64,000 nt of DNA, from the sequence record ON286975. One strand, written 5' to 3'. Source of the DNA: Escherichia phage I29. Below are positions 5,001 to 38,029 of the stretch, piece by piece. A program made the position numbers and the translations under genes. The notes under the pieces were generated by a model that made no database searches, was not told where the DNA came from, and saw only the letters and a program-made list of their open reading frames with translations. The first letter of the stretch is position 1. Each line of letters begins with the position of its first letter.

Positions 5001-5841
5001 ACGAAGCTGTTTGTTGGTTCCACATACCCCAACGGCCTGTTGCATCAAGCTGCAAGTACCCTGCCGTATTTAAATCATCTCCAGCACGGATAACTGTTCT
5101 TGTTGGGTTGTTTGCCTCTAGGCGTTTAAATTCATCACGAAGTGCTATTCTTTTCGTTGTTGCTACACCGTTGGTTACTGCAATGGTGTACATGGCTCCG
5201 GTGGTAGCGCCACGGAAAATACCATCAACAGTTGTAGTATCACGACGAGATACCACACCGTTCAGAAATTTTTCACCAGCTGCTACAGAAGGGTAGTTGG
5301 TAGTTCTTCCCTCTTCAATAACTGCAGGGCCAACAAAGTTATCAAGGTGAATAACATCGCCTACAGTGTGCACTGTACCAAAATCTACACGCTGTGCAAG
5401 TGCTTTGGCATCGTTAGCTGTCTGAACAGTAACATCCATTACATCCTGGACAGACTGCCCTTCGGCTGTCATGATCATAGATGCGCCAATGGTAGATTCC
5501 AGCTCCTCCCTTAAGGACGGGTCAGTATATACCATCCATGCAGCATCAGTGATCCCACCATCGGAGTACGGTGAAGACAGTGCAGGAACAGTGTGCGGAA
5601 ATTCGCCTTTCCAACGTAGGTAGAGGTCTTCCTCTTCGAAGTAGGCAAAATCCATTGGGCCGTTTAACTTACCACCTTCCTTAAAGGAGATTACATGAGA
5701 AACAGTCCCATCAACATGGACAACATCGCCAATTTTTACACGACGGGTCAGGTCTGGTTGTTGAACAACCAGGTAATCATCCTCTGTCACTGCGGTAGTG
5801 GCAGGAAGAGATTCAATTCTGACAACTTTAATATCAGCCAT
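2041..5841 (-). CDS. long tail fiber / receptor-binding protein with C-terminal intramolecular chaperone domain
   Basis: 1266 aa; AGGAG RBS before ATG at 5841. N-terminal ~100 aa paralogous to the 8477..9145 product. C-terminal ~120 aa contains SDRDLKDNIEVIP...KMKGYTY, matching the conserved Ser-Asp-x-x-Leu-Lys autoproteolytic chaperone motif of tail fibers and tailspikes. Confidence 0.8.
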   Translation of the reverse strand: MADIKVVRIESLPATTAVTEDDYLVVQQPDLTRRVKIGDVVHVDGTVSHVISFKEGGKLNGPMDFAYFEEEDLYLRWKGEFPHTVPALSSPYSDGGITDAAWMVYTDPSLREELESTIGASMIMTAEGQSVQDVMDVTVQTANDAKALAQRVDFGTVHTVGDVIHLDNFVGPAVIEEGRTTNYPSVAAGEKFLNGVVSRRDTTTVDGIFRGATTGAMYTIAVTNGVATTKRIALRDEFKRLEANNPTRTVIRAGDDLNTAGYLQLDATGRWGMWNQQTASWQPLAIEQGGTGARDAAGVRINIGAFYKQRAALEPNFNINNLTGNQDGVYYQPMTAYATEANGYPAGSGAGHLIVWQNNANGGTGCRQEYYPFSNVDVWYLRTYQANTNQWTAWQPMVRPRNDDTFRSHIGLGSRNTPTFGHLYLSQSTSEVKSPSGILHGDKYGADGVLEHGYRIYSEVRNDNKAWLTIHLHKGAKGSETHSYLGFREDGVLDCPKYMQVGDLNGQLANWGLGEWIRSSGAERGFWGSKKAAKMVVWDGGMDEQGEGTLEWGVYNNRKAKWEPLPQAAGGTGATTLADAQNLFKVPIAAGVKDFLTLPRTAGMEDGKYYPIIVRTDPYYAPSTGTDITIVTRSSSGNDPMNCATLQCHYRTGGWTDRGDSFYGVVNFYQNEKALLGMVAPTRGKQEYVAFYAEARAFPVSIYASRNVVEVFTREQDYQVGSVTDNQDGVKFVAPLQSADLNLAVLGDNNTNTRPIVDFKGTSGFYTGGGTQWHYIGTAERYAVMSKMNMPKVELWADGLNYLCYGSPRKALFSNAGFQCASDGTEDLTNGTFTSKCGNGAGLKGQAEFRSTPEAGQVIVRDVVGSAHKFYNFNKDGTFSAPGGFVCHTGADWNNQFGNNNPSKIMAGNVNGPEGSMVVAGLSVGFSGNYAFQMAGRLDQLYTRSIEQGNHRAWNKVIQHRGQGLGTNDLNDYKGDREGFYHQEANAQATPERNYPCAQAGTLIVYRNYANVPESCVQEYVSYLGEKFLRYGTTIGSVFTWGPWQQLGGKGITLKTQGSNLDPEFIIHTGGGATVGNSSNIPANTGRLYYWGNGADRKNVLEFQISDNSTLSNWVFHCGAKTDEAKSRYFAVNGAVECTTVSQSSDRDLKDNIEVIPNAVEAIRKMKGYTYTLKENGMPYAGVIAQEVMEALPEAVGSFVQRKEVPGPTQDGTPLMTEERFYNVDYAAVTGLLVQVCREQDDKITALEEQVKKLTEVVTGLQEKLK

Positions 5842-5877
5842 TCTTTCTCCTGAAAGGGGGCAAACAGCCCCCCTATG

Positions 5878-8475
5878 TTAAAGGTACAATCCACGGTATT
5901 GAGCATAAAGGCCCAGACCGCGAAGGATTTCGCCAGAGTGATAGCCAACCGGATCAGAAACTGCCCAGCAGCCGTTTAAAATATTATCCCCATTAATGAA
6001 GTGGTGCTTTTGCAGTAGCTTCACACAGGCTTCCACAACAATATCTATTTGAGGTATTGTCTCTGAATACCCGCACAGACCTAGCCAGCAGCAACCTGCA
6101 AGCCATTCACCTACCACCCACATCCTGTCTCCTCTGTCCTGATAAGAATATCCCCCAGAGGTGTTAAAGTCTGTAGGCAGATTTCCTGAATGAGATGACT
6201 GGAATCTGTTGAGGAACCATGCCCATTTCTGGCAGAACAGGAATAGTCTTTCATCAACAGGTTCTTTATGTTTCTTGAGCTCATATATTGTGCGGCACGC
6301 AGCAACAAAAGATCTTGACTGGAGCTTAGAGTTATCTACCATCTCCCACCAACCAGTCAACCCTTCATTACCTCTTTGCCATACATAACGTGAGGCAACT
6401 GGACCCTCTGTCTTAAATGTATTATTATACCAGACTTGAGCGTCATACAGAAAGCCTATTGTATTTGACAATCTATGGCGATCTATGTTTTCTGCACCCA
6501 TGCAGTAGACTGCTGGGTATTGCATGCCAGGGTAGGGCCAATTTGGCCTTTCCTCTAAGAGATAGTTTTCCTTATCTATCACCTTTCCGGCAGGGAACAC
6601 ACCTGGTGTGTGCCTGTATGCACCTTGCTTGTAGTTTCTGACATAGCAATCACCAACCTTGGCGGTTGATTCTGTCTTGCTTGCCATCCATACGCTAAAC
6701 CAGATTAGATAAGCATCCCTATCTGCAATATAGAATTGCGGCAGTGTGTTGACGCAATATAGATCAAACAAGCCATTACCTATCTGCCTGTCGCTTAGGC
6801 TGAAATCTACAGAGGTGAGTCCCTTAGGATTAGCAAAGAAAGGTTTAATCTCTTCTTCAGTGTGATGAGGTTGTGTCGGATCTAGTTTGAAATCTCCTAG
6901 AGTAAGAGTTTCTGTTATCCATTGTCCATTAGTGGCATATAGATCAGCATACCATAACCACCTGTCTTTGTCAAGAAATTTGACCCTTACCATCTCATCA
7001 TCTGATCGATAAGTTACTGAGTTTAAAGAAATCTCTCTTCCAAAGTTGAAAGTTACTTTGCCTCTTGCTATATTACAACGGGTGAAGTTGTCAGAGTGGT
7101 TGTAAATGTCAGTATCGTACTGCATACTAACACTGGCACCACCGCTCACGGCAATGTTTTCCTCTTTAGGTAAGAGGTACGGATTACCGTCTTTACCAAC
7201 TACCTCTACGAAATCAGTAACCTTGGCAACTATTTCTGTTACCTCTGCCCCTCCAAAAGGAACCCCTATCCTGTACTGTTTTTTGTTATTGTTGCCATCA
7301 TTAAGGATGAAATGTGGCTGGAACAGAACCCCTTCTCCTCCGAAATTCATAACAATTTCAGCATCTCTGCCTATTTTGTATGTAGTCCCTTTTTGAATTA
7401 TTTCGCAAGGCTGGCGTGCGTTCATTCTAAAATTGATATACCCGTCACTGTCTCTGCTCATGACAGGAACTGTTCCTGCAACAAGACAAGTACCGTCTGT
7501 AAACGGTGCCTTAATCAACGTGGTCTTTCTAAACAACTTGTCGTAGGCGTTTATATCACTGAAATTAAGCAACTTGTTGTAAGACTGTTTAAACGCGGTG
7601 TAATACTTTTCCTCACCTGTCAAGGTGTAGAGTTGATAACAAGCGTCACACCACATTTCTTCCCCGTCCAACTCTGGGGCCTGATTATCTGCAACCACGT
7701 TTATAGGATTTACAATTACAGGGGATCCAGCAGGTATCACCGATCCACCCTGCTCTTGAGGTAATCTTACACAATAGGTCACCTTGTGGCTTCCTGTAAC
7801 ACCCTTATCTTGTAATTGGATTGTGCCGAACTCTATAGACGTATGCCCACTGTCGGCTATGCTCCCGTTAGCCCAATAGCGGTTACCATCCCATGCTATG
7901 TACCACTCAACCCACCAACTTAATCCTGATGTTGTCCAATCTGGGTTAGCATCTGTGCCACCGTAAACATCAGAGTCTACAGTGTTTCTTCCTAACACAC
8001 CGTTATACGCTTGGAATGCCTTGTCCAGGTATTCCCCCCATGTCGGAGATCCAGCTGGGATTTTTCCTCTACCGTTGGTAAAAGACACTACCACATCTTT
8101 AAACCCACCGTGTGATGGAACCCCATCTGTGGATAGAGGGTAGTGGGACAATCTTTGCATTTTACTTTCTACGGCATATGCACCCAGAAGATGACTATTG
8201 TAAGCTTCCCAAGCATCTTTTGCCCTATCCAGATAGAAATCGCTTTTCGATGCCCTGTATGCTTCAATGTATCCCAGAATCAACACAGCTTGGGACTCAT
8301 GCATTGCCCAATCGTTATTTATCTTATTACCTGCCCACCCTGCAGCTATAAGACCATCAGGGTTTACTAGCTTATTTTGTGTAGGTGTGTTGGTAATACC
8401 TGTGTTGTTATCGAGGCACTTCCTGTGCCCCTCAATCATCTGAAATACGTTATCAATGTTGTGTTGAATACGCAT
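5878..8475 (-). CDS. putative tailspike-like protein, possible glycan-degrading enzyme
   Basis: 865-aa ORF between two fiber genes; its ATG lies 1 nt after the TAA of the upstream 222-aa anchor-domain protein. No anchor domain of its own. Enzymatic assignment is inference only. Confidence 0.45.
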   Translation of the reverse strand: MRIQHNIDNVFQMIEGHRKCLDNNTGITNTPTQNKLVNPDGLIAAGWAGNKINNDWAMHESQAVLILGYIEAYRASKSDFYLDRAKDAWEAYNSHLLGAYAVESKMQRLSHYPLSTDGVPSHGGFKDVVVSFTNGRGKIPAGSPTWGEYLDKAFQAYNGVLGRNTVDSDVYGGTDANPDWTTSGLSWWVEWYIAWDGNRYWANGSIADSGHTSIEFGTIQLQDKGVTGSHKVTYCVRLPQEQGGSVIPAGSPVIVNPINVVADNQAPELDGEEMWCDACYQLYTLTGEEKYYTAFKQSYNKLLNFSDINAYDKLFRKTTLIKAPFTDGTCLVAGTVPVMSRDSDGYINFRMNARQPCEIIQKGTTYKIGRDAEIVMNFGGEGVLFQPHFILNDGNNNKKQYRIGVPFGGAEVTEIVAKVTDFVEVVGKDGNPYLLPKEENIAVSGGASVSMQYDTDIYNHSDNFTRCNIARGKVTFNFGREISLNSVTYRSDDEMVRVKFLDKDRWLWYADLYATNGQWITETLTLGDFKLDPTQPHHTEEEIKPFFANPKGLTSVDFSLSDRQIGNGLFDLYCVNTLPQFYIADRDAYLIWFSVWMASKTESTAKVGDCYVRNYKQGAYRHTPGVFPAGKVIDKENYLLEERPNWPYPGMQYPAVYCMGAENIDRHRLSNTIGFLYDAQVWYNNTFKTEGPVASRYVWQRGNEGLTGWWEMVDNSKLQSRSFVAACRTIYELKKHKEPVDERLFLFCQKWAWFLNRFQSSHSGNLPTDFNTSGGYSYQDRGDRMWVVGEWLAGCCWLGLCGYSETIPQIDIVVEACVKLLQKHHFINGDNILNGCWAVSDPVGYHSGEILRGLGLYAQYRGLYL

Positions 8476-28518: not shown

Positions 28519-28595
28519 TGGTCTCCACGGAGTGATTCGAACACTCGACCTCCTGATCCCAAATCAGGCGCTCTACCAAGCTGAGCTACGCGGAG
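28519..28595 (-). tRNA. tRNA-Pro (anticodon UGG)
   Basis: Hand-folded: acceptor CTCCGCG/CGTGGAG (C1-G72), anticodon stem CCTGA/TCAGG, loop TTTGGGA, T-arm GAGTG-TTCGAAT-CACTC, encoded CCA. Confidence 0.8.
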
Positions 28596-28606
28596 TATTT
28601 ATTATT

Positions 28607-28681
28607 TGGTGGCCCTGGGTGGAATTGAACCACCGTCTGGCGATTATGAGTCGCTTGCTTGAACCTTCCAGCTACAGGGCC
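28607..28681 (-). tRNA. tRNA-Met or Ile2 (anticodon CAU)
   Basis: Hand-folded: acceptor GGCCCTG/CAGGGCC, anticodon loop CTCATAA, T-arm GGTGG-TTCAATT-CCACC, encoded CCA. Confidence 0.75.
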
Positions 28682-28682
28682 A

Positions 28683-28758
28683 TGGTGCTGATGGCAGGAC
28701 TTGAACCTGCAACCTATTGATTACAAATCAATTGCACTACCAATTGTGCTACATCAGC
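28683..28758 (-). tRNA. tRNA-Thr (anticodon UGU)
   Basis: Hand-folded: acceptor GCTGATG/CATCAGC, D-stem GCAC/GTGC, anticodon stem ATTGA/TCAAT, loop TTTGTAA, T-arm GCAGG-TTCAAGT-CCTGC, CCA. Confidence 0.8.
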
Positions 28759-28763
28759 AAAAA

Positions 28764-28862
28764 GGTGCTAGGTGATGGAATCGAACCACCTATGTATTCA
28801 ACGACTACCTCGTCTATTTTCAGGATTAAAAATCCTCGCCCTTGCCAAAGGGCTTACCTAGC
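28764..28862 (-). ncRNA. atypical tRNA-like element (possible pseudo-tRNA or small stable RNA); anticodon not assignable
   Basis: 7/7 complementary acceptor ends GCTAGGT/ACCTAGC, D-arm GCCC-TTTGGCAA-GGGC and T-arm GGTGG-TTCGATT-CCATC, but the 46-nt middle has no canonical anticodon arm and contains a tight AGGATT-TTT-AATCCT hairpin; 3' end is ACC-T rather than CCA. Confidence 0.35.
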
Positions 28863-28960
28863 TCAGTATGTTGACCATGTTGCTAGTCGGCGATGACGAC
28901 TGTAACATTTGATAATCCGGTTCTGCTTCCGGCTTTCGCTTAATTACAAGGTCAACAATA

Positions 28961-29051
28961 TGGCTGAGGGTAATGGAATCGAACCATCATCAAGTCATCC
29001 TCAACGGGACGGTTTTCAAGACCGCTTGAGCACCATTGCTCCCTACCCTCA
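28961..29051 (-). tRNA. tRNA-Ser (anticodon UGA), type II with long variable arm
   Basis: Hand-folded: acceptor TGAGGGT/ACCCTCA, anticodon stem GCGGT/ACCGT, loop CTTGAAA, long variable arm, T-arm GATGG-TTCGATT-CCATT, discriminator G, CCA. Confidence 0.7.
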
Positions 29052-29165
29052 TTTATAAACAATACTGATAATGACACTGATTTTCGAGCAGTTAGTGACT
29101 AGTATAAACGACGATAAATATCAATGCCATTATCTGTATGATTTATGCATTTAAAACTATAAATT

Positions 29166-29252
29166 TGGTGGGGAGTGGTGGAGTCGAACCACCCGAGTCG
29201 CAATGACAATAGATTTACAGTCTACACCGCTACCCCTACGGGATAACTCCCC
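29166..29252 (-). tRNA. tRNA-Tyr (anticodon GUA), type II
   Basis: Acceptor GGGGAGT/ACTCCCC, anticodon loop CTGTAAA and variable arm TGTCATTGCGACTCG closely resemble bacterial tRNA-Tyr; T-arm GGTGG-TTCGACT-CCACC, CCA. Confidence 0.8.
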
Positions 29253-29256
29253 AATT

Positions 29257-29331
29257 TGGCACCCCGTACTGGACTCGAACCAGTGTCAACGGCTTAGAAG
29301 GCCGCTGCTTTATCCACTAAGCTAACAGGGC
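29257..29331 (-). tRNA. tRNA-Arg (anticodon UCU)
   Basis: D-arm TTAGCTTAGTGGATAAAGC, anticodon stem-loop GCGGC-CTTCTAA-GCCGT, T-arm ACTGG-TTCGAGT-CCAGT, CCA; resembles bacterial tRNA-Arg(UCU). Confidence 0.75.
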
Positions 29332-30639: not shown

Positions 30640-31207
30640 AGTAAATCTTATTTAACATTACCTCATCCTTTGCAGAAAGGATATCAAGATATGCATCACC
30701 AAATCTTCCTGCAACAACCTCTGCATGATACATCACTTCGTTAACATCGTCAAGAGTGATAACCGGATGACCATATCTTTCTGAATATTGTCTCAGGGTG
30801 CGATGTAACGAGTCGTCATCATATGCAGACTTTTTAATATCACAAACACGACGAATAGCCTTGATGTCGAAAAAACCTGTGCGATACCACCCAAGAAAAA
30901 GGTTTCGTGCAGTGTCAACATCTACATTGATACCATCAAGAACCTTATCTACAAGATAGCTGTCATCCTTTGGACCAGCGTCCTTAGTGCGAATGTAGTT
31001 GCCATCTTTTCCAGGCGACATCTCCTTCTCATCCCCAACCTGCATGCCATCATTTGGCGGTGTTAGCCACTTATCCGGATGCTTACGATCACGAGCGTTA
31101 GAATGATTACGCTGGAAACCGGGCTTCCACTTGAAAGTTTTCTCCATCTGTTCTTCATTCTGATAACGTTTTGCAATCTTTTCACGGTCATCTTTGCGTG
31201 AACCCAT
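30629..31207 (-). CDS. hypothetical protein
   Basis: 192-aa ORF; first gene leftward of the iteron-containing intergenic region. Confidence 0.45.
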   Translation of the reverse strand: MGSRKDDREKIAKRYQNEEQMEKTFKWKPGFQRNHSNARDRKHPDKWLTPPNDGMQVGDEKEMSPGKDGNYIRTKDAGPKDDSYLVDKVLDGINVDVDTARNLFLGWYRTGFFDIKAIRRVCDIKKSAYDDDSLHRTLRQYSERYGHPVITLDDVNEVMYHAEVVAGRFGDAYLDILSAKDEVMLNKIYYER

Positions 31208-31711
31208 AGCTGCCTCCTCTTCAAGTTATAGAAAAACTAACTGTATCGCTTTGTAACGAGCTTTTCTATCAAACTGGTGCGATTGCATTACCTGGTATAG
31301 TTTATATAGCTGTGGAGCGATTTAGGGGCCTTCTTGTCAGTTTCCACACATAAACTTCATCCAAGCTCGCGCGGGAGACTCTCAACCGACTCCTTACGGC
31401 GCTGGCAAGCTTTCGTCGGTGGTCCACATCAGTGCTCGGCCTTTGGCCTGCGCTATCGCTTCGCTCCCACACATGTTAACAGACCTGTATGTATGAACTT
31501 CTGTTATTGTGTGCACCAAAGAGGCCCGGCATCTCGCCCCTCGTAGGCGAGTGCCAATGAAGGGCCGACACTGCCCATAGTAAGTAATAAATTTAAAACA
31601 TGGTACTTAGGATCTAGTATATTCTACATAAGTTAAGTATATGTACTTAGTACCATAAGTACTAGATCTTTTATTTTTTTATTATTTAGTTATTTTAGTT
31701 ATATTCTTTAT

Positions 31712-31820
31712 GTGTCCGTATCACGGACAGCTAGTGTCCGTATTACGGGCAGATGTGTCCGCGTGACGGACAGTAGTGTCCGTATCACGGACAGTTAATA
31801 GTATCCGTTCCATGGCGAAC
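31712..31820. repeat. array of four tandem ~21-bp direct repeats (iteron/operator-like), each with internal inverted repeat, plus one degenerate copy
   Basis: GTGTCCGTATCACGGACAG at 31712-31730 and 31776-31794 (identical), GTGTCCGTATTACGGGCAG at 31734-31752, GTGTCCGCGTGACGGACAG at 31755-31773, degenerate copy about 31800-31820; spacing 22/21/21 bp; each unit contains GTCCG...CGGAC. Confidence 0.8.
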
Positions 31821-31868
31821 ATAAAACATACGAATCCTTATAGTACAGATATTTAAGTTTTTACTGGT

Positions 31869-32219
31869 CTAACCAGTTGTTGACATCCGAATAACTTCTT
31901 CTGGTGGCAAAACTTTGGAAAATGTGCATCTTTTACCTCTCCCTTGTGTGGATGTTTCAACCACTCCTGCACATTCTAAAGTTTTAACGCACGCTGCTGC
32001 TTTTGTTTTCTTTATCCCAACATCTGCTGCAATTTTCCTTGTGCTTGGTGTGAAGCGTGAATTTCCTCCAAGCTTATACCAGTTGTGCAGGTAGCAGTAT
32101 ACGATCTTGTCATACAAGTCAAGAACAACAACCTCCCCAGTTGTGTCATTCAAAACTTTTGACATAGATAGTATTTCAAGGGGGACTTTAAGATATAGCA
32201 GCTTATCCCCATCTTTCAT
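31869..32219 (-). CDS. hypothetical protein, possible helix-turn-helix DNA-binding protein
   Basis: 116-aa ORF; segment STRKIAADVGIKKTKAAACVKTL has helix-turn-helix character (inference); 3' end abuts the iteron array. Confidence 0.35.
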   Translation of the reverse strand: MKDGDKLLYLKVPLEILSMSKVLNDTTGEVVVLDLYDKIVYCYLHNWYKLGGNSRFTPSTRKIAADVGIKKTKAAACVKTLECAGVVETSTQGRGKRCTFSKVLPPEEVIRMSTTG

Positions 32220-32266
32220 ATCTCCTGATTCTCCTTGTGTGGCAATTTTCTTTAAAATAGCAGGGA

Positions 32267-32821
32267 TTACTCCCTGCTGTCAATATCAAAACTCATTGCA
32301 ATACGGTATGCCTCTTCTAATGGTAAGAGTCTCCCCCACACATCCCAACCGACATCAAGCTGCCTGCCAAACAACTGTTGTGTGGTTCCGTGAGCATGAC
32401 CGAACAGTTGGACTGATCCGTGAGGCTTTCTGTTCCACTTTGCAAACTGGTAATGGCTCATACAGATCAAATTCTTGTTGTGGCGAAGCTCGTAATAATC
32501 TACAACCTCATGACCGAACTCTTTCATAATTCTGACAGTCGTCCTTGTGTCATGGTTGCCACGAACAAGAATAATATGTCCGTTCAACATATTTAGAATA
32601 TCTGGAAGTAAGTTGTTGATATTCTTATCATTAGTGCACGCAATATCTCCCAAGTGGAACACAGTGTCTGCAGGTGACACAACAGAGTTCCACTTGGCGA
32701 TGATTCCCGCATTCATACTGTCAAGATTGTGATCATACTGAGATCTGTGTTTTTGACATGAATCAAACTCCATGACCCGCTGGTGGAGAAAGTGTGTGTC
32801 GCTTGTTACAAAGTATTTCAT
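32267..32821 (-). CDS. calcineurin-like metallophosphoesterase (candidate RNA 2',3'-end phosphatase)
   Basis: ORF track 32267..32926; ATG at 32821 (MKYFVTSDTHF...) has a GAGGAA RBS. Motifs SDTHF, GDI, GNHD, GHAHG match binuclear metallophosphoesterases. Confidence 0.7.
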   Translation of the reverse strand: MKYFVTSDTHFLHQRVMEFDSCQKHRSQYDHNLDSMNAGIIAKWNSVVSPADTVFHLGDIACTNDKNINNLLPDILNMLNGHIILVRGNHDTRTTVRIMKEFGHEVVDYYELRHNKNLICMSHYQFAKWNRKPHGSVQLFGHAHGTTQQLFGRQLDVGWDVWGRLLPLEEAYRIAMSFDIDSRE

Positions 32822-32828
32822 ACATTCC

Positions 32829-33239
32829 TCATTTAAGTTTAATGCAGTTTTTAAGCTGGCGTTCCATACGATCCACAACCTTGTCTGGAACATCATGAAT
32901 GCTTTTATTACCGTGGCGGTTTTCAACCACGATCACGGTATAACTATACCCATGACTGATTGCCATGTCAACATATTCCTGCACATGTTTTTCTTTTGTA
33001 AACGTATTACTTACCACGATACGGTCGTATCCCATACGCATCATATCTTCTACGTTATCTTTGCACCATTTTGCTGCGAGTGTTACTTTACTTGCATCCC
33101 AGTTGTAATTGCCGTCATCGTCATACCAGAACATGTCGTTCTCAAAATGTGGATACAGACCCTCTAAAGATAGCGCATTTGCCAGTGTTGATTTGCCAGA
33201 CCCTGGTAGACCACGCACGATATATAGCATTTTAGACAT
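32829..33239 (-). CDS. P-loop kinase, polynucleotide kinase-like
   Basis: ORF track 32829..33296; ATG at 33239 (MSKMLYIVRGLPGSGKST...) has a GGAGGG RBS; Walker A GLPGSGKST at the N-terminus as in polynucleotide 5'-kinase domains; adjacent to phosphoesterase and RNA ligase-like genes. Confidence 0.55.
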   Translation of the reverse strand: MSKMLYIVRGLPGSGKSTLANALSLEGLYPHFENDMFWYDDDGNYNWDASKVTLAAKWCKDNVEDMMRMGYDRIVVSNTFTKEKHVQEYVDMAISHGYSYTVIVVENRHGNKSIHDVPDKVVDRMERQLKNCIKLK

Positions 33240-33339
33240 AGTGACCCTCCGTTTTAATTTCAACGGTAGTATACCTGACTGTTTTGTTAATTTCAAGTGT
33301 TGACACTAGGTTATTTGTGTGGCAGGATAGACTGACAAA

Positions 33340-34275
33340 ATGACAAATGAGGAACGTATGATGAAGTATTTTAATGCAGACGACCTAGTTGACAAAGGTC
33401 TTGTAACCAGTAGGTATTACCCAGATCTCGGGTTAAAGATCTATAAATATGCTAGAAAAGTATTTTACAACAATTTATGGCATTTGTCCCCTCGTTTACT
33501 GGAGTGCCGAGGCATTGTTGTAGGTAATGAAGGAAATGTTGTGGCATGGCCCTTCACAAAAGTGTTTAACTTGGGAGAAAACTCCACCAACCTGCCTGAC
33601 AATAAGCTTGTGACTGCGGTAGAGAAAAAGAACGGATTCCTTGGTGTGGTATCATCTCATAAAGGTGACCTATTGTTCTCAACAACCGGGTCTCTTGATT
33701 CTCCATATTGTAACCTTGCAAAGGAAACCATCCAAGAGCAATGTGGTAATTTAGATCTTATCAAGAAGGTTATGGGCAATGAAAACATGACATTCATGTT
33801 TGAAATTTGTCACCCTTCAGATCCGCATATTGTTCAAGAAGACCATGGCGCATATTTGATAGGTTGCAGATATAATGATTCTGGAATAATGCTACCAGAA
33901 GCAGCTTTAGATGGGATTGCCAAATACCTTGGTGCAAAACGTCCTCACACTGTGCGTGAAATCCCGTTCAGCTATGCAAAAGAATTAGCTGCAGAAACAA
34001 GGGGCGAAGGGTATATGATCCGTAAGCCTTACTACCCTTATGACCTGCAGCTGAAGATCAAGTCTCCATACTATTTGGCACGGAAGGCCGTAATGAGGGG
34101 TAAAGCTTGGAAGATTTGGGATGATGATATCTTTAAACGTATTGACGAAGAGTTTTATGGCATGGTAAACTTCATTCGTAGCAATTACACAGAAGATGTG
34201 TGGAACTGCCTCCTGGAGCAGGAACGCCGTGAGATACTTGATTGCTATTTTCACAACGAGGACTATATGCAATGA
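33340..34275 (+). CDS. RNA ligase-like nucleotidyltransferase
   Basis: 311 aa; covalent nucleotidyltransferase motif I-like VEKKNGFLG (KxNG); distinct from the DNA ligase at 36746; divergent from the kinase/phosphatase pair. Confidence 0.5.
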   Translation: MTNEERMMKYFNADDLVDKGLVTSRYYPDLGLKIYKYARKVFYNNLWHLSPRLLECRGIVVGNEGNVVAWPFTKVFNLGENSTNLPDNKLVTAVEKKNGFLGVVSSHKGDLLFSTTGSLDSPYCNLAKETIQEQCGNLDLIKKVMGNENMTFMFEICHPSDPHIVQEDHGAYLIGCRYNDSGIMLPEAALDGIAKYLGAKRPHTVREIPFSYAKELAAETRGEGYMIRKPYYPYDLQLKIKSPYYLARKAVMRGKAWKIWDDDIFKRIDEEFYGMVNFIRSNYTEDVWNCLLEQERREILDCYFHNEDYMQ

Positions 34276-34622
34276 AGAAGTTGATTGTGTGGCTAGATGA
34301 CTTGAGAGATCCGTCAAATTACGGAATCCAAGATGCTCTTTGGCTGAAGAACTCTTCTGAGTTCATGGATTTTATTAACGATAATAGAAAGCTCTACAGG
34401 CGCGTTTCTGAGTGGCATTTTGACAATGATCTAGGTGAAGTGCTTGAAGGGTACGACTGCTTCTCTGCGCTAGAGGAGAAACTTGTATTCGGAAAGCCAC
34501 CACTTATTGACAACGTGATTATTTTCGTGCATACTTCTAATCCATCGGCAGCTCGTAAATTTATGCTTGCTGCTGACTCATTCAAGAAGTTTGGAATAGA
34601 GATTAAACAAAACATCTACTGA
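34272..34622 (+). CDS. hypothetical protein, receiver (CheY-fold)-like residue pattern
   Basis: ORF track 34242..34622; ATG at 34272 overlaps the RNA ligase stop (ATGA). Pattern LIVWLDD ... HFDNDLG ... IFVHTSNP ... AARKF recalls the acidic/Thr/Lys positions of receiver domains (inference). Confidence 0.4.
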   Translation: MKKLIVWLDDLRDPSNYGIQDALWLKNSSEFMDFINDNRKLYRRVSEWHFDNDLGEVLEGYDCFSALEEKLVFGKPPLIDNVIIFVHTSNPSAARKFMLAADSFKKFGIEIKQNIY

Positions 34623-34630
34623 GGACACTT

Positions 34631-35392
34631 ATGCGACGACTGATTATTATCTCCGGTGCTGGTTTGAGCGCTGAATCTGGTATTCCCACTTTCCGATCTG
34701 GTAGCACTGCAATGTGGGAGAATTTCAGCATCGATGAGGTGTGCAACATCCACACCTTTGCCAAGAACTACTATAAGGTGCATGACTTTTACAATGCACG
34801 TCGTGTAGCTCTGGGCAGTGTTGATCCTAACCTTGCACATCTTCGGATCGCTGAGTGGTATTCCCGCTGGTCTGGTCGTGTGATCAACCTTACTACCAAT
34901 GTAGATGATTTGCTGGAGCGTGCTGGTGTAAAACATGAAGATATTTTACATGTCCACGGGTATTTGCCTGAAATCACCTACGAAGATGCTGAAGGTAATG
35001 ATGTAATTAAAAATATCGGATACACGGAGGTAGATACAGGCAAGTATACCTGGGTTAAGCCCAATGTAGTGTTCTTCGGTGAGGTTGCTCCTAAGTATAC
35101 AGACATGTATGACCTGTTGACATCTCTCACAAGCAATGATATGGTGATCCTGGTAGGTTGTTCTAACACAGTTATTAATTTTAACTGGGAATTGTTTCCT
35201 GCTACTTGTAAAGGCACAAAACTGCTGATTGTAAACAAGTATGATTCGCAGAGTGCAGATGGAAGTGGCATTTCACGTAGCGACCTTTATCAATATGAGG
35301 ATCGCGGGATCCCTGTATGGTTTAACGGTGCTGTTGACGCTTTCTCTGATAAAGCATTTATTGAAACTGTAGAAAACTTTATGGAACTTTAA
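34631..35392 (+). CDS. Sir2-family NAD-dependent deacylase/ADP-ribosyltransferase-like protein (zinc-ribbon-less)
   Basis: 253 aa; N-terminal GAGLSAESGIPTFRSG matches the Sir2 NAD-binding signature, with later HVHG; the canonical tetracysteine zinc module is not evident. Confidence 0.75.
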   Translation: MRRLIIISGAGLSAESGIPTFRSGSTAMWENFSIDEVCNIHTFAKNYYKVHDFYNARRVALGSVDPNLAHLRIAEWYSRWSGRVINLTTNVDDLLERAGVKHEDILHVHGYLPEITYEDAEGNDVIKNIGYTEVDTGKYTWVKPNVVFFGEVAPKYTDMYDLLTSLTSNDMVILVGCSNTVINFNWELFPATCKGTKLLIVNKYDSQSADGSGISRSDLYQYEDRGIPVWFNGAVDAFSDKAFIETVENFMEL

Positions 35393-35405
35393 AAGGAGAC
35401 CTTTA

Positions 35406-36119
35406 ATGCTGAATACTAAACTGATCGACAACCTGGAAAAACTGTCCCAGCCTGAAAACTACCTTTGGTCTGCCAACTGGGTGGAAAACTGGAACCGTGT
35501 GGCAGCTAAAGTGAAAAAATCATACACACCATTCGAATTACAGCTTAGCTTCATTGAGGAAGAGTTCAATGAGGTTTTGGAAGAGCTGGAGAAAGGTGAT
35601 GGTGGAGATCACCTGCTAAAAGAGGCCTGCGATCTTCACGTTGTCACAAGTTATGCAGCTTATCTTGTTAATGATAACCACGAAAAGTGGTCAAACCTGT
35701 TTGATAATCCGCGAGGTCTTAAGTTCAAGATCGGTGAGTTCTATGATACACTGATCGCTGCGAAAAACACATCCAAGCAAAGAGCGTCAGCTTACCGACT
35801 AGCGGAGTTATCAACAGCTTTGCTGTTCCAGCTTAGCGGGGATGTGTGTGGGATGATGCGGAAGGTTCTAAAATCTAATGACAGTAAGTTTGCACGGATC
35901 AACCATCTACGGCATTCACACGGTGCCAGTGCAGATATGCCTGCTGAACAACTCATCGAGTTGGAGATTAAAGATCTTGAGCGTCGTTTTGGTGGTCGCT
36001 ACGAAGGTTTCGTTGCTAAAGAGGAGTTCTACAACGGCAATAAAGTTATTATATTCCTTGACAGTAAAGGTAAGATTATGAAGCCTTCGAGCTTCAAGGA
36101 TGTAACAGAGTATATTTAA
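35406..36119 (+). CDS. hypothetical protein, possible MazG-like NTP pyrophosphohydrolase
   Basis: 237 aa; EEEFNEVLEELEKGD ... LLKEACDLH resembles the EExxE...D metal-binding motif of MazG-like enzymes (weak). Confidence 0.35.
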   Translation: MLNTKLIDNLEKLSQPENYLWSANWVENWNRVAAKVKKSYTPFELQLSFIEEEFNEVLEELEKGDGGDHLLKEACDLHVVTSYAAYLVNDNHEKWSNLFDNPRGLKFKIGEFYDTLIAAKNTSKQRASAYRLAELSTALLFQLSGDVCGMMRKVLKSNDSKFARINHLRHSHGASADMPAEQLIELEIKDLERRFGGRYEGFVAKEEFYNGNKVIIFLDSKGKIMKPSSFKDVTEYI

Positions 36120-36124
36120 CAACA

Positions 36125-36150
36125 TAGCCGGGATTACCCGGCTTTACTTA
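36125..36150 (+). terminator. hairpin terminator after 35406..36119
   Basis: AGCCGGG-ATTA-CCCGGCT 7-bp stem followed by TTTACTTATTAT. Confidence 0.5.
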
Positions 36151-36181
36151 TTATGGAAAGTATGCAGTGAGGTAGTCAGTT

Positions 36182-36490
36182 ATGTACAAGCATTCCAGAG
36201 ATCTTGAAAAAGATGCTGTGTTTGGCGACCAGATGAAGGAGCTGATCAAACTTATTGGTAGAATGGAAGATAAGTTTGACACTAAAATCTACATCGATAG
36301 CAAGGTCTTCAACCACAAAATATGGACAAATGTGTGTGTTGGGCTACATGGTGATAAAGATATTGTAAATTTGGTTGTAATAAAGTTCATAGTGTGGCAG
36401 AATAGGACTATACGTTATTACGACCCACACTTACTTGTTTATCCTATAAAAGACCTACTACAGAAGGAGGACTGCAATGCCGTTATTTAA
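36182..36490 (+). CDS. hypothetical protein
   Basis: 102-aa ORF. Confidence 0.4.
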   Translation: MYKHSRDLEKDAVFGDQMKELIKLIGRMEDKFDTKIYIDSKVFNHKIWTNVCVGLHGDKDIVNLVVIKFIVWQNRTIRYYDPHLLVYPIKDLLQKEDCNAVI

Positions 36491-36746
36491 TCTTGCTAAA
36501 CCTGTAGAAGCACATCAGTTTGACGGAAGCTCTTCATCAGTATCTGATCTGCAACGGTGGATTGATACAGGTGTGTTTACATCGTCACCTGTTCGGACCA
36601 GAGATCTTCGTCGCATGTGTGAGCTTGTCGAGCCTTTTGGTAACCTTGTCTTGTACCAGGGAGATTGGCTAGTTGACTTTATGGGAGACTGGTTGGTAAT
36701 GAGTAAAGAAGAGATGTTTAAAATTTTTAAGGAAGAGGCCGAGTAA
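36477..36746 (+). CDS. hypothetical protein
   Basis: 89-aa ORF overlapping neighbours at both ends. Confidence 0.4.
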   Translation: MPLFNLAKPVEAHQFDGSSSSVSDLQRWIDTGVFTSSPVRTRDLRRMCELVEPFGNLVLYQGDWLVDFMGDWLVMSKEEMFKIFKEEAE

Positions 36747-38029
36747 TGCATCAGATCAAAACAACACTGTACGCACTGAATAAAGATGGCAGCTACCAAC
36801 AGTGGAAAGTATTCACGGATGGTGATAAGGTTATCGTAGAGTTTGGCAAGCTTGATGGTAAACTGCAGTACAAAGAGACGGTATGCACACCTAAGAACGT
36901 AGGTCGTGCCAACGAGACTACAGCTGAGCAACAGGCCGAGCTTGAGGCTATCAGCAAGTGGGAAAAACAAGTCCGTCTGGGGTATGTTGAAAACATGGAA
37001 GATTGCGAGCAGGGTGTTGATCTTTTACCCATGCTGGTGCATGACTACCTGAAGCGTGGCAAGGCACTTAAATTACCTTGCTGGATCTTGCGTAAGTTAG
37101 ATGGCCTTCGTCTGCTTGTTGTTTTCCAAAATGGTGAGCCTAAATTTATTTCCCGTGGTAATAAGTCCTACCCTATTCAAGGAAAGCTTTTAGAGCAACT
37201 TCGTTCTTTCCATTCTACCACTGGGATTAAACAACTTGATGGGGAACTATACATTCATGGTCTTCCTTTGCAGAAAATAGTGTCTCTTGCTAAACGGTGG
37301 CGCACACAGGAAGAGATTCAGGCCGAGATCGATAAAGACTATGAGGCAGATAAAAAACGCCGTCATGCAGCAATTAAGGCAGGTTTATCAACATACAAAA
37401 ACTTCAACAAGGTAGATATTCCTGTCGATGTTGAGCCTGTTCGTGATGATTTGCGTTACGGTGGGTACTGTAGCTACGATCTGGAGTATCACATTTTTGA
37501 TATTCCTAGCGACAAGGTGTGGTGGGATCCAGAAACAGAGTCTGGACGCTGCAAGGATCTTATGGATGCAGAGGATACCGTTACCACTCTGATGCTTGAC
37601 CATATCAAGGTTGTTGACGCAGAGCTTGCGTACACAGTTGATCATTGCGAAGAATCTGTTGGTATATTCATGTCCGAAGGATATGAAGGTACTATCATGC
37701 GTAATTTCTGCGGTAAATACGAGTACGGTCAGCGAACATCTGAAGCATTGAAATGGAAAAAGTTCAACGACGCAGAGGTGAAAGTTATTGACGTTGAGAA
37801 AGATAAGAATGATGAAGGTGTTCTTATCTGTGTTGACAAGGAAGGTGTTATTGTTAAAATGAAGATGAAAGGCACGCACGAGGAGCGTAGCTATGACAGG
37901 ATGCAGGAAATGATCGGCAAGTTTGTCACCTTCAAATATCAATCAAGGACAGAAGACAACAACTACCAATTCCCTGTCGGTATCTGCGTCCGAAATGTTG
38001 ACCCAGACACTTGGGAGGTTCTGGAATGA
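36746..38029 (+). CDS. ATP-dependent DNA ligase
   Basis: 427 aa; motif I KLDGLR (KxDGxR) at about residue 118. Confidence 0.65.
   Translation: MHQIKTTLYALNKDGSYQQWKVFTDGDKVIVEFGKLDGKLQYKETVCTPKNVGRANETTAEQQAELEAISKWEKQVRLGYVENMEDCEQGVDLLPMLVHDYLKRGKALKLPCWILRKLDGLRLLVVFQNGEPKFISRGNKSYPIQGKLLEQLRSFHSTTGIKQLDGELYIHGLPLQKIVSLAKRWRTQEEIQAEIDKDYEADKKRRHAAIKAGLSTYKNFNKVDIPVDVEPVRDDLRYGGYCSYDLEYHIFDIPSDKVWWDPETESGRCKDLMDAEDTVTTLMLDHIKVVDAELAYTVDHCEESVGIFMSEGYEGTIMRNFCGKYEYGQRTSEALKWKKFNDAEVKVIDVEKDKNDEGVLICVDKEGVIVKMKMKGTHEERSYDRMQEMIGKFVTFKYQSRTEDNNYQFPVGICVRNVDPDTWEVLE

Follow-up and report, generated by a model that had tools for sequence, protein, structure and literature searches.

What is a bacteriophage doing with a phosphoesterase, a polynucleotide kinase, an RNA ligase and a sirtuin encoded side by side, a few kilobases from its tRNA genes? 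We addressed this question in Escherichia phage I29 (sequence record ON286975), in a stretch of 64,000 nucleotides (nt), hereafter the window, where six genes occupy positions 32267–36119. An original prediction, made from the sequence alone, had read them as split RNA end-healing enzymes and an RNA ligase linked to a Sir2 homolog. We conclude that the locus is probably a phage tRNA heal-and-seal repair cassette with lineage-specific passengers. Three of its genes encode a metallophosphoesterase, a polynucleotide kinase (PNK)-clade kinase and an Rnl1-family ligase, and these three stay linked across diverse phages; their products would together heal and seal broken RNA, presumably tRNA. The six genes, with sizes in amino acids (aa) and the searches behind each assignment, are:

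32267..32821, minus strand: small binuclear metallophosphoesterase (MPE) of the aq_1665 family, 184 aa, candidate 3'-end healing enzyme (cyclic phosphodiesterase and/or phosphomonoesterase); Pfam, PHROGs, family profile
32829..33239, minus strand: PNK-clade P-loop kinase, 136 aa, putative RNA 5'-OH kinase; AAA_33, PHROGs, family profile
33340..34275, plus strand: Rnl1-family ATP-dependent RNA ligase, 311 aa, putative sealing enzyme; PF09511, phrog_562, family profile, AF2 model
34272..34622, plus strand: cREC (cyclic-phosphate processing receiver) protein, 116 aa, predicted metal-independent phosphoesterase; PF20274
34631..35392, plus strand: class III (CobB/SIRT5-like) sirtuin (Sir2), 253 aa, without Zn-binding cysteines, predicted to consume NAD+; PF02146, clade profile
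35406..36119, plus strand: all-alpha NTP pyrophosphohydrolase superfamily protein (MazG-like), 237 aa, with a small C-terminal beta hairpin; motif, PHROGs, homologues

All six open reading frames (ORFs) are confirmed at 32267–36119 and coincide with annotated coding sequences (CDSs) of Escherichia phages MaxTheCat (Bas57) and A6-1. The six genes and their divergent arrangement are thus as first described, and the domain calls made for all six proteins hold in searches with Pfam, PHROGs and family profiles.

Candidate enzymes for RNA end healing and sealing

The MPE is the candidate for healing 3' ends. It exceeds the Pfam cut-offs for Metallophos_2 and Metallophos and matches phrog_547 (E = 2e-51). 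Its metal-binding motifs (DxH, GD, GNH(D/E), H and GHxH, represented by D8, H10, G58-D59, G88-N89-H90, H123, G141-H142 and H144) are invariant in 23 homologues. When the family profile was searched against the PDB, the sole strong match was 1xm7 (aq_1665; E = 2.5e-22), followed by GpdQ-like phosphohydrolases (8e-4) and COG0622; neither lambda phosphatase nor the CthPnkp phosphatase appeared at E <= 0.1. The MPE had been likened to the phosphatase of bacterial Pnkp, and because the profile finds neither enzyme, that likeness is valid for the binuclear superfamily only, the family itself being aq_1665-like. Models of DNA-repair enzymes fare no better, as the NCBIfam PdeM and SbcD-related models score 20 bits, far under their cut-offs of at least 115.

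The second minus-strand gene encodes a kinase that matches Pfam AAA_33 (E = 1e-10) as well as phrog_2071 and phrog_505, both annotated as polynucleotide kinase. A 23-member profile gives a full-length alignment with T4 Pnk (1ltq, E = 7.5e-9) and also matches Capnocytophaga Pnkp1 (4xrp, E = 1e-8), PSTK (seryl-tRNA(Sec) kinase), the Rhizopus azygosporus kinase 9d8a and CthPnk (E = 1e-6), while matches to adenylate, shikimate and nucleoside kinases are confined to the P-loop. The protein was originally called PNK-like, and the profile agrees: it fits T4 Pnk, Pnkp1 and CthPnk, not dNMP or thymidylate kinases. Both the Walker A motif GxxGSGKST and D35, which aligns with the T4 Pnk general base Asp35, are invariant. 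A T4-type HAD phosphatase domain (DxDxT) is absent from this single-domain, 136-aa polypeptide, and the phosphatase candidate is the separate MPE. The healing activities thus appear to be split, as predicted, unlike those of the fused T4 Pnk.

Sealing would fall to the ligase, for which, as for the kinase, single-sequence searches of the PDB were uninformative and family profiles were required. The protein matches PF09511 (RNA_lig_T4_1; 55.3 bits against a cut-off of 28.3, E = 1e-14) and phrog_562 (E = 7e-66), and a 22-homologue profile matches T4 Rnl1 (2c5u) at E = 2.6e-13. Residues that align with the T4 essentials are invariant in the 22 homologues: R57, K74, F76, K96/G99 (motif I), E155 (motif III), E223/G224 (motif IV) and K239/K241 (motif V). 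All three T4 Rnl1-specific residues that we tested, Arg54, Lys75 and Phe77, are retained; T4 Lys119 is not, its counterpart being T116. Foldseek searches with the AF2 model (pLDDT 92) returned the single-stranded RNA ligases Rnl3, the fungal Trl1 ligase domain (Trl1-LIG) and T4 Rnl1 at ~1e-11, and far weaker matches to DNA ligases, with that of African swine fever virus (ASFV) at ~1e-5 and cellular enzymes at 1e-3 or worse. Profile and Foldseek results therefore uphold the initial call of an RNA ligase, neither a DNA ligase nor a capping enzyme. It is no T4 RnlA orthologue, since it scores 38.7 bits against the RnlA equivalog model TIGR02308, far below the cut-off of 242. GenBank relatives annotate an alternative ligase start at 33358.

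Linkage of the three genes across phages

The MPE, kinase and ligase genes stay together in diverse phages. We surveyed 80 IMG/VR viral contigs carrying ligase homologues at 36–49% identity, searching 10-kb flanks with the window proteins; 57 of the 80 loci have at least 3 kb on both sides of the ligase. The partners were distributed as follows:

Kinase: 73/80 loci, 68 of them within 1.5 kb of the ligase; 56/57 loci with such flanks
MPE: 62/80 loci, 56 within 1.5 kb; 48/57 with flanks
cREC: 10/80 loci, 9 within 1.5 kb; 10/57 with flanks
Sir2: 11/80 loci, 10 within 1.5 kb; 11/57 with flanks
MazG-like: 13/80 loci, 1 within 1.5 kb; 13/57 with flanks

The order of the triad differs among loci (MPE-ligase-kinase, kinase-ligase-MPE or divergent), and because the genes stay together while their order varies, we consider the triad to be retained despite rearrangement. 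Kinase and ligase are even fused in a single ORF in 11 of the 80 loci (L042, L043, L047–L049, L054, L056–L058, L060 and L061), all metagenomic contigs encoding a protein of ~420 aa with the kinase N-terminal; one, of 418 aa, was confirmed as AAA_33 plus ligase. No aq_1665-type MPE lies near these fusions within the available flanks, and a Pfam search for a replacement phosphatase beside them yielded nothing but a GIY-YIG protein and a second ligase, of Rnl2 type. The Rnl2-type enzyme (PF09414 plus OB domain) is encoded in L043, 1.7 kb downstream of the fusion.

Two further counts bear on the linkage. tRNA genes occur within 10 kb of the ligase in 46 of the 80 loci. Among 50,697 phage records, ligase and kinase are found in nearly equal numbers genus by genus (ligase/kinase: Escherichia 199/197, Pseudomonas 177/173, Klebsiella 39/36, Acinetobacter 26/24, Salmonella 14/14, Aeromonas 13/13). 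Since co-occurrence, fusions and genus counts agree, we take MPE, kinase and ligase to be a conserved functional unit with a recurrent association with tRNA clusters. The co-occurrence expected of the locus as a whole is therefore found in part: MPE, ligase and kinase are tightly linked across diverse phages, and the links to Sir2 and the MazG-like gene belong to one lineage only.

A proposed route for tRNA repair

How could these proteins act together? In the route we favor, the tRNA halves produced by a host anticodon nuclease would end in a 2',3'-cyclic phosphate and a 5'-OH. The aq_1665-type MPE would clear the 3' end to a 3'-OH, the PNK-clade kinase would phosphorylate the 5'-OH, and the Rnl1-family ligase would reseal the break with ATP. 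In some lineages cREC may be an accessory phosphoesterase whose predicted task is to open the cyclic phosphates carried by RNA ends or by ADP-ribose derivatives. Sir2 would consume NAD+, either for KptA/Tpt1-like removal of 2'-phosphates or for protein deacylation or ADP-ribosylation, and the MazG-like protein, a dimeric-dUTPase-like NTP pyrophosphatase, is most likely a nucleotide-directed syntenic neighbour.

End healing and sealing of RNA, as originally proposed, draws support from the enzyme families, their catalytic residues and the co-occurrence of the triad. Several points nevertheless weigh against tRNA repair. The one solved relative of the MPE, aq_1665 of Aquifex, is an uncharacterised protein. 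The kinase has no equivalent of T4 Pnk Arg38, the position being aromatic (W38 here); its R110 and K114 align with the T4 lid residues Arg122 and Arg126 and are not conserved family-wide, an invariant H115-x-V-P motif standing in place of the lid arginines. In the ligase, the tail past motif V (~65 residues, predicted helical, H270–310) lies outside the T4 Rnl1 alignment, which ends near T4 residue 250; in T4 Rnl1 the C-terminal domain confers tRNA specificity. Because T4 Rnl1 also doubles as the tail-fibre attachment factor gp63, homology of the ligase does not by itself prove a role in repair. Finally, the survey loci are phylogenetically non-independent, and the proximity of tRNA genes may partly stem from shared early-region synteny.

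The cREC protein and the sirtuin

Two plus-strand genes downstream of the ligase raise a further question, whether they take part in the same pathway. The first encodes a protein that scores 53.3 bits against PF20274 (cREC_REC; cut-off 27, E = 4.5e-14), with D9, D10, R12, D51, D53, H87 and N90 invariant across 11 sequences that include a jumbo-phage Nudix-cREC fusion. The Aravind group defined this family as the cyclic-phosphate processing receiver (PMC7824862), and its hydrolysis of 2',3'-cyclic phosphate or ADP-ribose cyclic phosphate is a prediction (PMC7824862, PMC9503650). Judging from the gene junction, where the cREC start overlaps the ligase stop as ATGA and a GAGGA motif lies upstream, cREC is translationally coupled to the ligase.

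Elsewhere, cREC lies between ligase and kinase in PVP-SE1-like phages and 0.5 kb upstream of MPE-ligase-kinase in phi92-like phages. In the T5-like Pectobacterium phage DU_PP_V (locus L005, 4998–5342) and in Proteus phage 1 (locus L089, 5926–6273) it sits inside a tRNA array. Searches with the window proteins found no ligase or Sir2 homologue in the DU_PP_V locus, and none is annotated in either of the two. In the jumbo phage BF, cREC is fused to a Nudt16-like Nudix domain and adjoins Sir2. These varied neighbourhoods tie cREC to RNA ligases and tRNAs and to NAD+/ADP-ribose enzymes alike.

The sirtuin matches PF02146 (SIR2) at E = 7e-28. Its clade profile finds E. coli CobB (1s5p) best, at E = 1e-33, then the archaeal Sir2-Af and SIRT5. 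Invariant or nearly so are G9-A10-G11-x-S13 (GAGxS), N90, D93, the catalytic H109 and Y54-x-x-R57, which align with CobB, including its FYNARR motif. The Cys4 zinc site is missing: all 10 clade members inspected are free of cysteines from the catalytic His to the FGE motif. From these features Sir2 appears to be a catalytically intact, CobB-like, zinc-less class III sirtuin; it scores 122.6 bits against the NCBIfam CobB model, under the cut-off of 243. A defence-type NADase was also considered and rejected, as no PADLOC family matched at E <= 1e-3 in a search for defence-type NADase Sir2 models (ThsA, DSR, SIR2-HerA). The role against NAD-targeting immunity that the original prediction raised is hypothetical. 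Family-model searches found no match to Tpt1/KptA (ADP-ribosyltransferase fold) in any of the six proteins.

To place the sirtuin among phages, we scored partners within 8 kb of Sir2 in 80 viral loci:

HAD_SAK_2 'Swiss Army Knife RNA repair' phosphatase: 23/80 loci, T5-like phages, Pfam-confirmed
Ligase cassette: 11/80 loci
NAMPT: 11/80 loci
None of the tested partners: 31/80 loci

Of the 1,022 phage records that contain the clade, most belong to T5-like phages of Salmonella and Escherichia that lack this ligase. A gene of NAD+ salvage lies near Sir2 in 13 of the 80 loci (the 11 with NAMPT and 2 further ones with NMNAT), from several lineages. NAMPT and PRPP synthetase sit divergently, 2–3 kb upstream of the MPE-ligase block, in PVP-SE1-like, Hena1-like and phi92-like phages (L009, L012–L016, L019, L111–L139), and in the PVP-SE1-like and Hena1-like phages the order downstream of the salvage genes is MPE-ligase-(cREC)-kinase-Sir2. 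A tblastn search of the 64-kb window with the relatives' proteins found no NAMPT, NMNAT or PRPP synthetase; rV5-like phages are without these genes. The link between Sir2 and the ligase is thus real yet limited to the rV5/PVP-SE1/Hena1 lineage. The repeated company of Sir2 with RNA-end phosphoesterases of three unrelated folds is suggestive, and so, equally, is its company with NAD+ salvage genes.

In Serratia phage BF (locus L088), Sir2 stands beside a 2H-family protein (4281–4727) that matches the anti-CBASS Acb1 model (E = 4e-15) and the Nudt16-like Nudix-cREC fusion (5763–6671). The region is flanked by NMNAT, NAMPT and a PIN-PhoH protein and looks like an NAD+/cyclic-nucleotide counter-defence island.

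Alternative readings of the locus

Could the sirtuin, possibly with cREC, serve an NAD+/ADP-ribose function in host takeover or counter-defence that has nothing to do with RNA repair? We regard this as possible if somewhat doubtful, and it is the alternative that survives best. Sir2 would act on host proteins as a CobB-like lysine deacylase or ADP-ribosyltransferase, or would process ADP-ribose-derived immune signals, and its adjacency to the repair genes would reflect shared early-region synteny. Its kinship fits, as CobB (E = 1e-33) and SIRT5 are its closest relatives and the catalytic His and YxxR are kept, but the Zn module that shapes the peptide cleft of canonical sirtuins is absent and, as noted, defence-type NADase models in PADLOC do not match. 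Neighbourhoods likewise speak both ways. NAMPT, PRPP synthetase and NMNAT genes, found within 8 kb of Sir2 in 13 of the 80 loci across several lineages, adjoin it in BF, where its other neighbours are the Acb1-like 2H esterase and the Nudix-cREC fusion; KVP40, Phapecoctavirus and many metagenomic phages carry Sir2 without a nearby repair gene. Yet cREC is coupled to the RNA ligase here and stands between ligase and kinase in PVP-SE1-like phages, and in T5-like phages Sir2 keeps recurring company with members of a HAD family associated with RNA repair.

At the other extreme, all six genes could form one NAD+-dependent RNA repair pathway, as proposed for this very neighbourhood (Iyer et al. 2022, PMC9503650). 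In that pathway, cREC or the MPE would open the cyclic phosphate to a 2'-phosphate, and kinase and ligase would join the ends with the 2'-phosphate left at the junction. The sirtuin would then move ADP-ribose from NAD+ onto the 2'-phosphate as KptA/Tpt1 does, and cREC, the MPE or the NTP pyrophosphatase would clear the resulting ADP-ribose cyclic phosphate. The four plus-strand genes are indeed packed tightly and bounded by a hairpin, and the Sir2 clade stands beside three unrelated families of RNA-end or cyclic-phosphate esterases in three phage groups: cREC here, HAD_SAK_2 in T5-like phages (23 of 80 Sir2 loci), and the 2H/Acb1-like protein and Nudix-cREC in BF. The ligase model also fits the fungal Trl1 ligase domain about as well as T4 Rnl1, and Trl1 requires a 2'-phosphate.

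The genes of this longer pathway, however, mostly live apart. The triad is present with neither Sir2 nor cREC within 10 kb in 46 of the 57 adequately flanked ligase loci (~80%); Pseudomonas phages, with 177 ligase records, fall outside the ten commonest genera for Sir2; and the Sir2 clade mostly occurs without this ligase, which accompanies it in 11 of 80 loci, compared with 31 of 80 that have no tested partner. Moreover, like CobB and SIRT5, Sir2 has the acyl-lysine motif YxxR of class III enzymes, as would suit an enzyme acting on proteins, and we know of no sirtuin that acts on an RNA 2'-phosphate. Because the triad is usually without Sir2 and cREC, and Sir2 keeps the hallmarks of protein deacylases, we hold the six-gene pathway to be unlikely. 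More unlikely again is the specific proposition that the zinc-less class III sirtuin is a nucleic-acid enzyme partnered by cREC. The sirtuin would be an RNA 2'-phosphotransferase that depends on NAD+, or else would ADP-ribosylate RNA ends, and cREC would be a cyclic phosphodiesterase of a new, metal-independent kind. If true, this proposition would give phages a Tpt1-independent, Trl1-like route of tRNA repair, as predicted in 2022.

It is very improbable that the triad acts elsewhere than on nuclease-damaged tRNA, namely on DNA ends, in the maturation of tRNAs encoded by the phage or, in the case of the ligase, in tail-fibre attachment like T4 gp63: public annotations with the T4 label 'RNA ligase and tail fiber attachment catalyst', the sub-threshold PdeM and SbcD-related matches of the MPE (20 bits against at least 115), an ATP-dependent DNA ligase 0.6 kb downstream and an unusual 97-nt tRNA-Lys in the neighbouring cluster all point that way, but the kinase profile is one of RNA/polynucleotide and tRNA kinases, the ligase matches single-stranded RNA ligases at ~1e-11 against ~1e-5 for the best DNA ligase (ASFV), a kinase-ligase fusion would be pointless for tail-fibre attachment, and the extra 25–27 nt of the odd tRNA form a variable-region arm, not an anticodon-loop intron.

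The neighbouring tRNA cluster

The nearby tRNA genes provide the context of the repair cassette and form a cluster:

28519..29331, minus strand: seven tRNA genes, Pro-UGG, CAU, Thr-UGU, an odd 97-nt Lys-UUU, Ser-UGA, Tyr-GUA and Arg-UCU; ARAGORN, Rfam, MaxTheCat annotation

The cluster was said to lie within 4 kb of the repair genes, and the measured distance is 2.9 kb. Its CAU tRNA is Met according to ARAGORN and Ile in the MaxTheCat record, and its tRNA-Ser (28961–29051) is unannotated in that near-identical record.

ARAGORN could not type the 97-nt tRNA (28766–28862, minus strand), reporting a 4-base anticodon; GenBank relatives call it tRNA-Lys. Visual inspection and folding show a normal acceptor stem, D arm and T arm, an anticodon loop UUUUUAA with anticodon UUU, and an extra 5-bp hairpin in a variable region of ~27 nt (minimum free energy -34.2 kcal/mol, z = -4.1). 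We therefore read the molecule as a probable class-II-like tRNA-Lys. An intron spliced by the cassette was considered and rejected because the extra 25–27 nt lie outside the normal UUU anticodon loop, in the variable region, where they form a fifth arm. PrrC targets tRNA-Lys(UUU) and PARIS is also listed as a tRNA-cleaving system, so the odd tRNA-Lys could be a nuclease-evading replacement.

A 2026 preprint on OLD reports that OLD cleaves tRNA-Thr(UGU) and counts PARIS among tRNA-cleaving systems. The tRNA set of the window (Thr-UGU, Lys-UUU, Tyr-GUA, Arg-UCU, Pro-UGG, CAU and Ser-UGA) overlaps the reported targets of anti-phage tRNases.

The MazG-like protein

The last gene of the locus encodes a protein with the invariant NTPPase metal motif EExxE...D (E52, E53, E56 and D76) and a match to phrog_671 (nucleotide pyrophosphohydrolase; E = 2e-21). 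PF01503 is present on three homologues and a HisE match is marginal; the window protein itself has no Pfam match, and Foldseek found no significant one. It belongs to the all-alpha NTP pyrophosphohydrolase superfamily, typified by a four-helix core, and is nearest in fold to dimeric dUTPases. The original MazG-like call thus stands for the all-alpha NTP pyrophosphohydrolase superfamily, whereas the linkage to the ligase is limited to one lineage. In relatives the gene comes after a DNA ligase, not after Sir2. It is probably a syntenic neighbour engaged in nucleotide housekeeping rather than RNA repair, and we place little confidence in any repair role.

Locus organization and surroundings

The locus is divided between two strands. 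MPE and kinase, 7 nt apart, lie on the minus strand; the plus strand carries the remaining four genes, with gaps of 8 nt and then 13 nt following cREC. Two noncoding features frame the plus-strand genes:

33240..33339, no strand assigned: divergent intergenic region of 100 bp that separates the starts of kinase and ligase and presumably carries the promoters of both operons
36126..36143, no strand assigned: GC-rich 7-bp hairpin AGCCGGG-ATTA-CCCGGCT from the terminator scan, terminator-like on both strands, 7 nt past the last stop codon

A sigma-70 consensus scan and a terminator scan of 31200–36800 gave counts no higher than shuffled expectation, so we claim no promoter, and the hairpin owes its terminator assignment to its position. 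It likely marks the end of the ligase-cREC-Sir2-NTPPase transcription unit. The ATGA overlap, the 8- and 13-nt gaps and the terminal hairpin are the evidence for reading the plus-strand genes as an operon, in which Sir2 would be co-transcribed with the ligase.

The 3.85-kb stretch is 99.7% identical to its counterparts in A6-1 and MaxTheCat, and matches at least 90% identical to the locus occur in 121 phage records, nearly all rV5-like Vequintavirus. By these matches the source phage is an rV5-like Vequintavirus, and the sequence itself is not new. In the MaxTheCat record the six genes are annotated, in order, as putative phosphoesterase, polynucleotide kinase, RNA ligase, hypothetical protein, sirtuin-domain NAD-dependent deacetylase and hypothetical protein. 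About 23 GenBank MG0656xx records titled 'Campylobacter phage' are 97–100% identical to rV5-like coliphages over the locus and are probably mislabelled or contaminant assemblies.

Beyond the six genes, a helix-turn-helix (HTH) protein of 116 aa (DUF6945/HTH_36, at or just under the Pfam cut-offs) is encoded at 31869–32219 on the minus strand, 47 nt downstream of the MPE. The MaxTheCat record lists it as a putative transcriptional regulator, and it may be co-transcribed with the MPE and the kinase. The ~660 nt at 31208–31868 hold small ORFs only, among which MaxTheCat annotates CDSs of 56 and 33 aa; a weak, sub-threshold Rfam match to rli43 there (22 bits, E = 0.05) is probably due to chance. 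On the other side, an ATP-dependent DNA ligase gene lies 0.6 kb downstream of the locus.

Significance and comparison with known systems

tRNA cleavage is now counted among the commonest anti-phage strategies. T4 Pnkp/Rnl1 is, to our knowledge, the only phage repair response that is understood experimentally. The 2026 OLD preprint lists PrrC, RloC, PARIS, retron-Septu, OLD, Cas13 and Cas12a3 as tRNA-cleaving anti-phage systems. The MPE-kinase-Rnl1 cassette spans hundreds of sequenced phages of Escherichia, Pseudomonas, Vibrio, Klebsiella and Acinetobacter, and we found no characterisation of it in the literature. Should the sirtuin and cREC act on RNA ends, sirtuins would gain a new class of substrate and the receiver fold a new enzymatic role. 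Even otherwise, the locus illustrates how RNA repair, NAD+ metabolism and tRNA supply cluster in phage early regions. Already known as a computational prediction, it offers experimenters a sound, tractable lead in a model collection of E. coli phages (BASEL Vequintavirus isolates).

That prediction is the closest precedent. The original prediction had taken the composition of the locus to be undescribed, but Iyer, Burroughs, Anantharaman and Aravind (Viruses 14:1977, 2022; PMC9503650) published the same neighbourhood as a sirtuin-centred, NAD+-utilising RNA repair neighbourhood of 'type 2', with Escherichia phage V5 and Proteus phage Mydo as prototypes. Their gene list (sirtuin, T4-like tRNA ligase, cREC, nucleotide kinase, MazG-superfamily pyrophosphatase and calcineurin-like phosphoesterase) shows no difference in composition from this locus of a near-identical phage, and they propose that the sirtuin removes 2'-phosphates as KptA/Tpt1 does. 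Because that work names this phage type, the locus is a rediscovery of a published, computational prediction. A literature search found two computational papers and no experimental work on phage sirtuins, cREC or this cassette. Our survey differs from the 2022 account in three respects: the phosphoesterase, there 'occasional', is near-universal with this ligase clade (48/57), the sirtuin and MazG links are confined to one lineage, and the MazG-like protein is nearest to dimeric dUTPases in fold. Two further sirtuin contexts of Iyer et al. were independently confirmed here.

Among characterised systems, T4 Pnkp and Rnl1, the answer to PrrC, follow the same plan: a kinase for the 5' end, a phosphatase for the 3' end and an Rnl1-family ligase to join them. 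The kinase of the locus aligns full-length with the T4 kinase domain, including Asp35, and its ligase has all the T4 Rnl1 nucleotidyltransferase motifs. In contrast to T4, where the phosphatase is a HAD domain fused to the kinase, the phosphatase of the locus is a separate binuclear MPE; equivalents of kinase Arg38 and ligase Lys119 and an alignable T4-type ligase C-terminal domain are missing, and cREC and Sir2 are additional. The bacterial Pnkp/Hen1 and Pnkp1-Rnl-Hen1 systems (Clostridium thermocellum, Capnocytophaga) combine the same kinase, metallophosphoesterase and ligase. Here, however, the proteins are separate rather than fused, the MPE is of the aq_1665 family, the ligase is Rnl1-type and no Hen1 methyltransferase was seen at the locus.

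If the 2022 hypothesis holds, fungal and plant splicing by Trl1 and Tpt1 would follow the same steps: cyclic phosphodiesterase, kinase, ligase and NAD+-dependent removal of a 2'-phosphate. The ligase model does match Trl1 ligase domains (~1e-11). Yet Sir2 has a Rossmann sirtuin fold unrelated to that of Tpt1/KptA, cREC is unrelated to 2H esterases, we see no evidence that the ligase needs a 2'-phosphate, and the presence of the MPE suggests that the phosphate is simply removed. The sirtuin, for its part, has the NAD+ pocket, catalytic His and YxxR in common with E. coli CobB and human SIRT5. It differs from both in lacking the four Zn cysteines, in being phage-encoded and in lying in neighbourhoods of RNA repair or NAD+ salvage.

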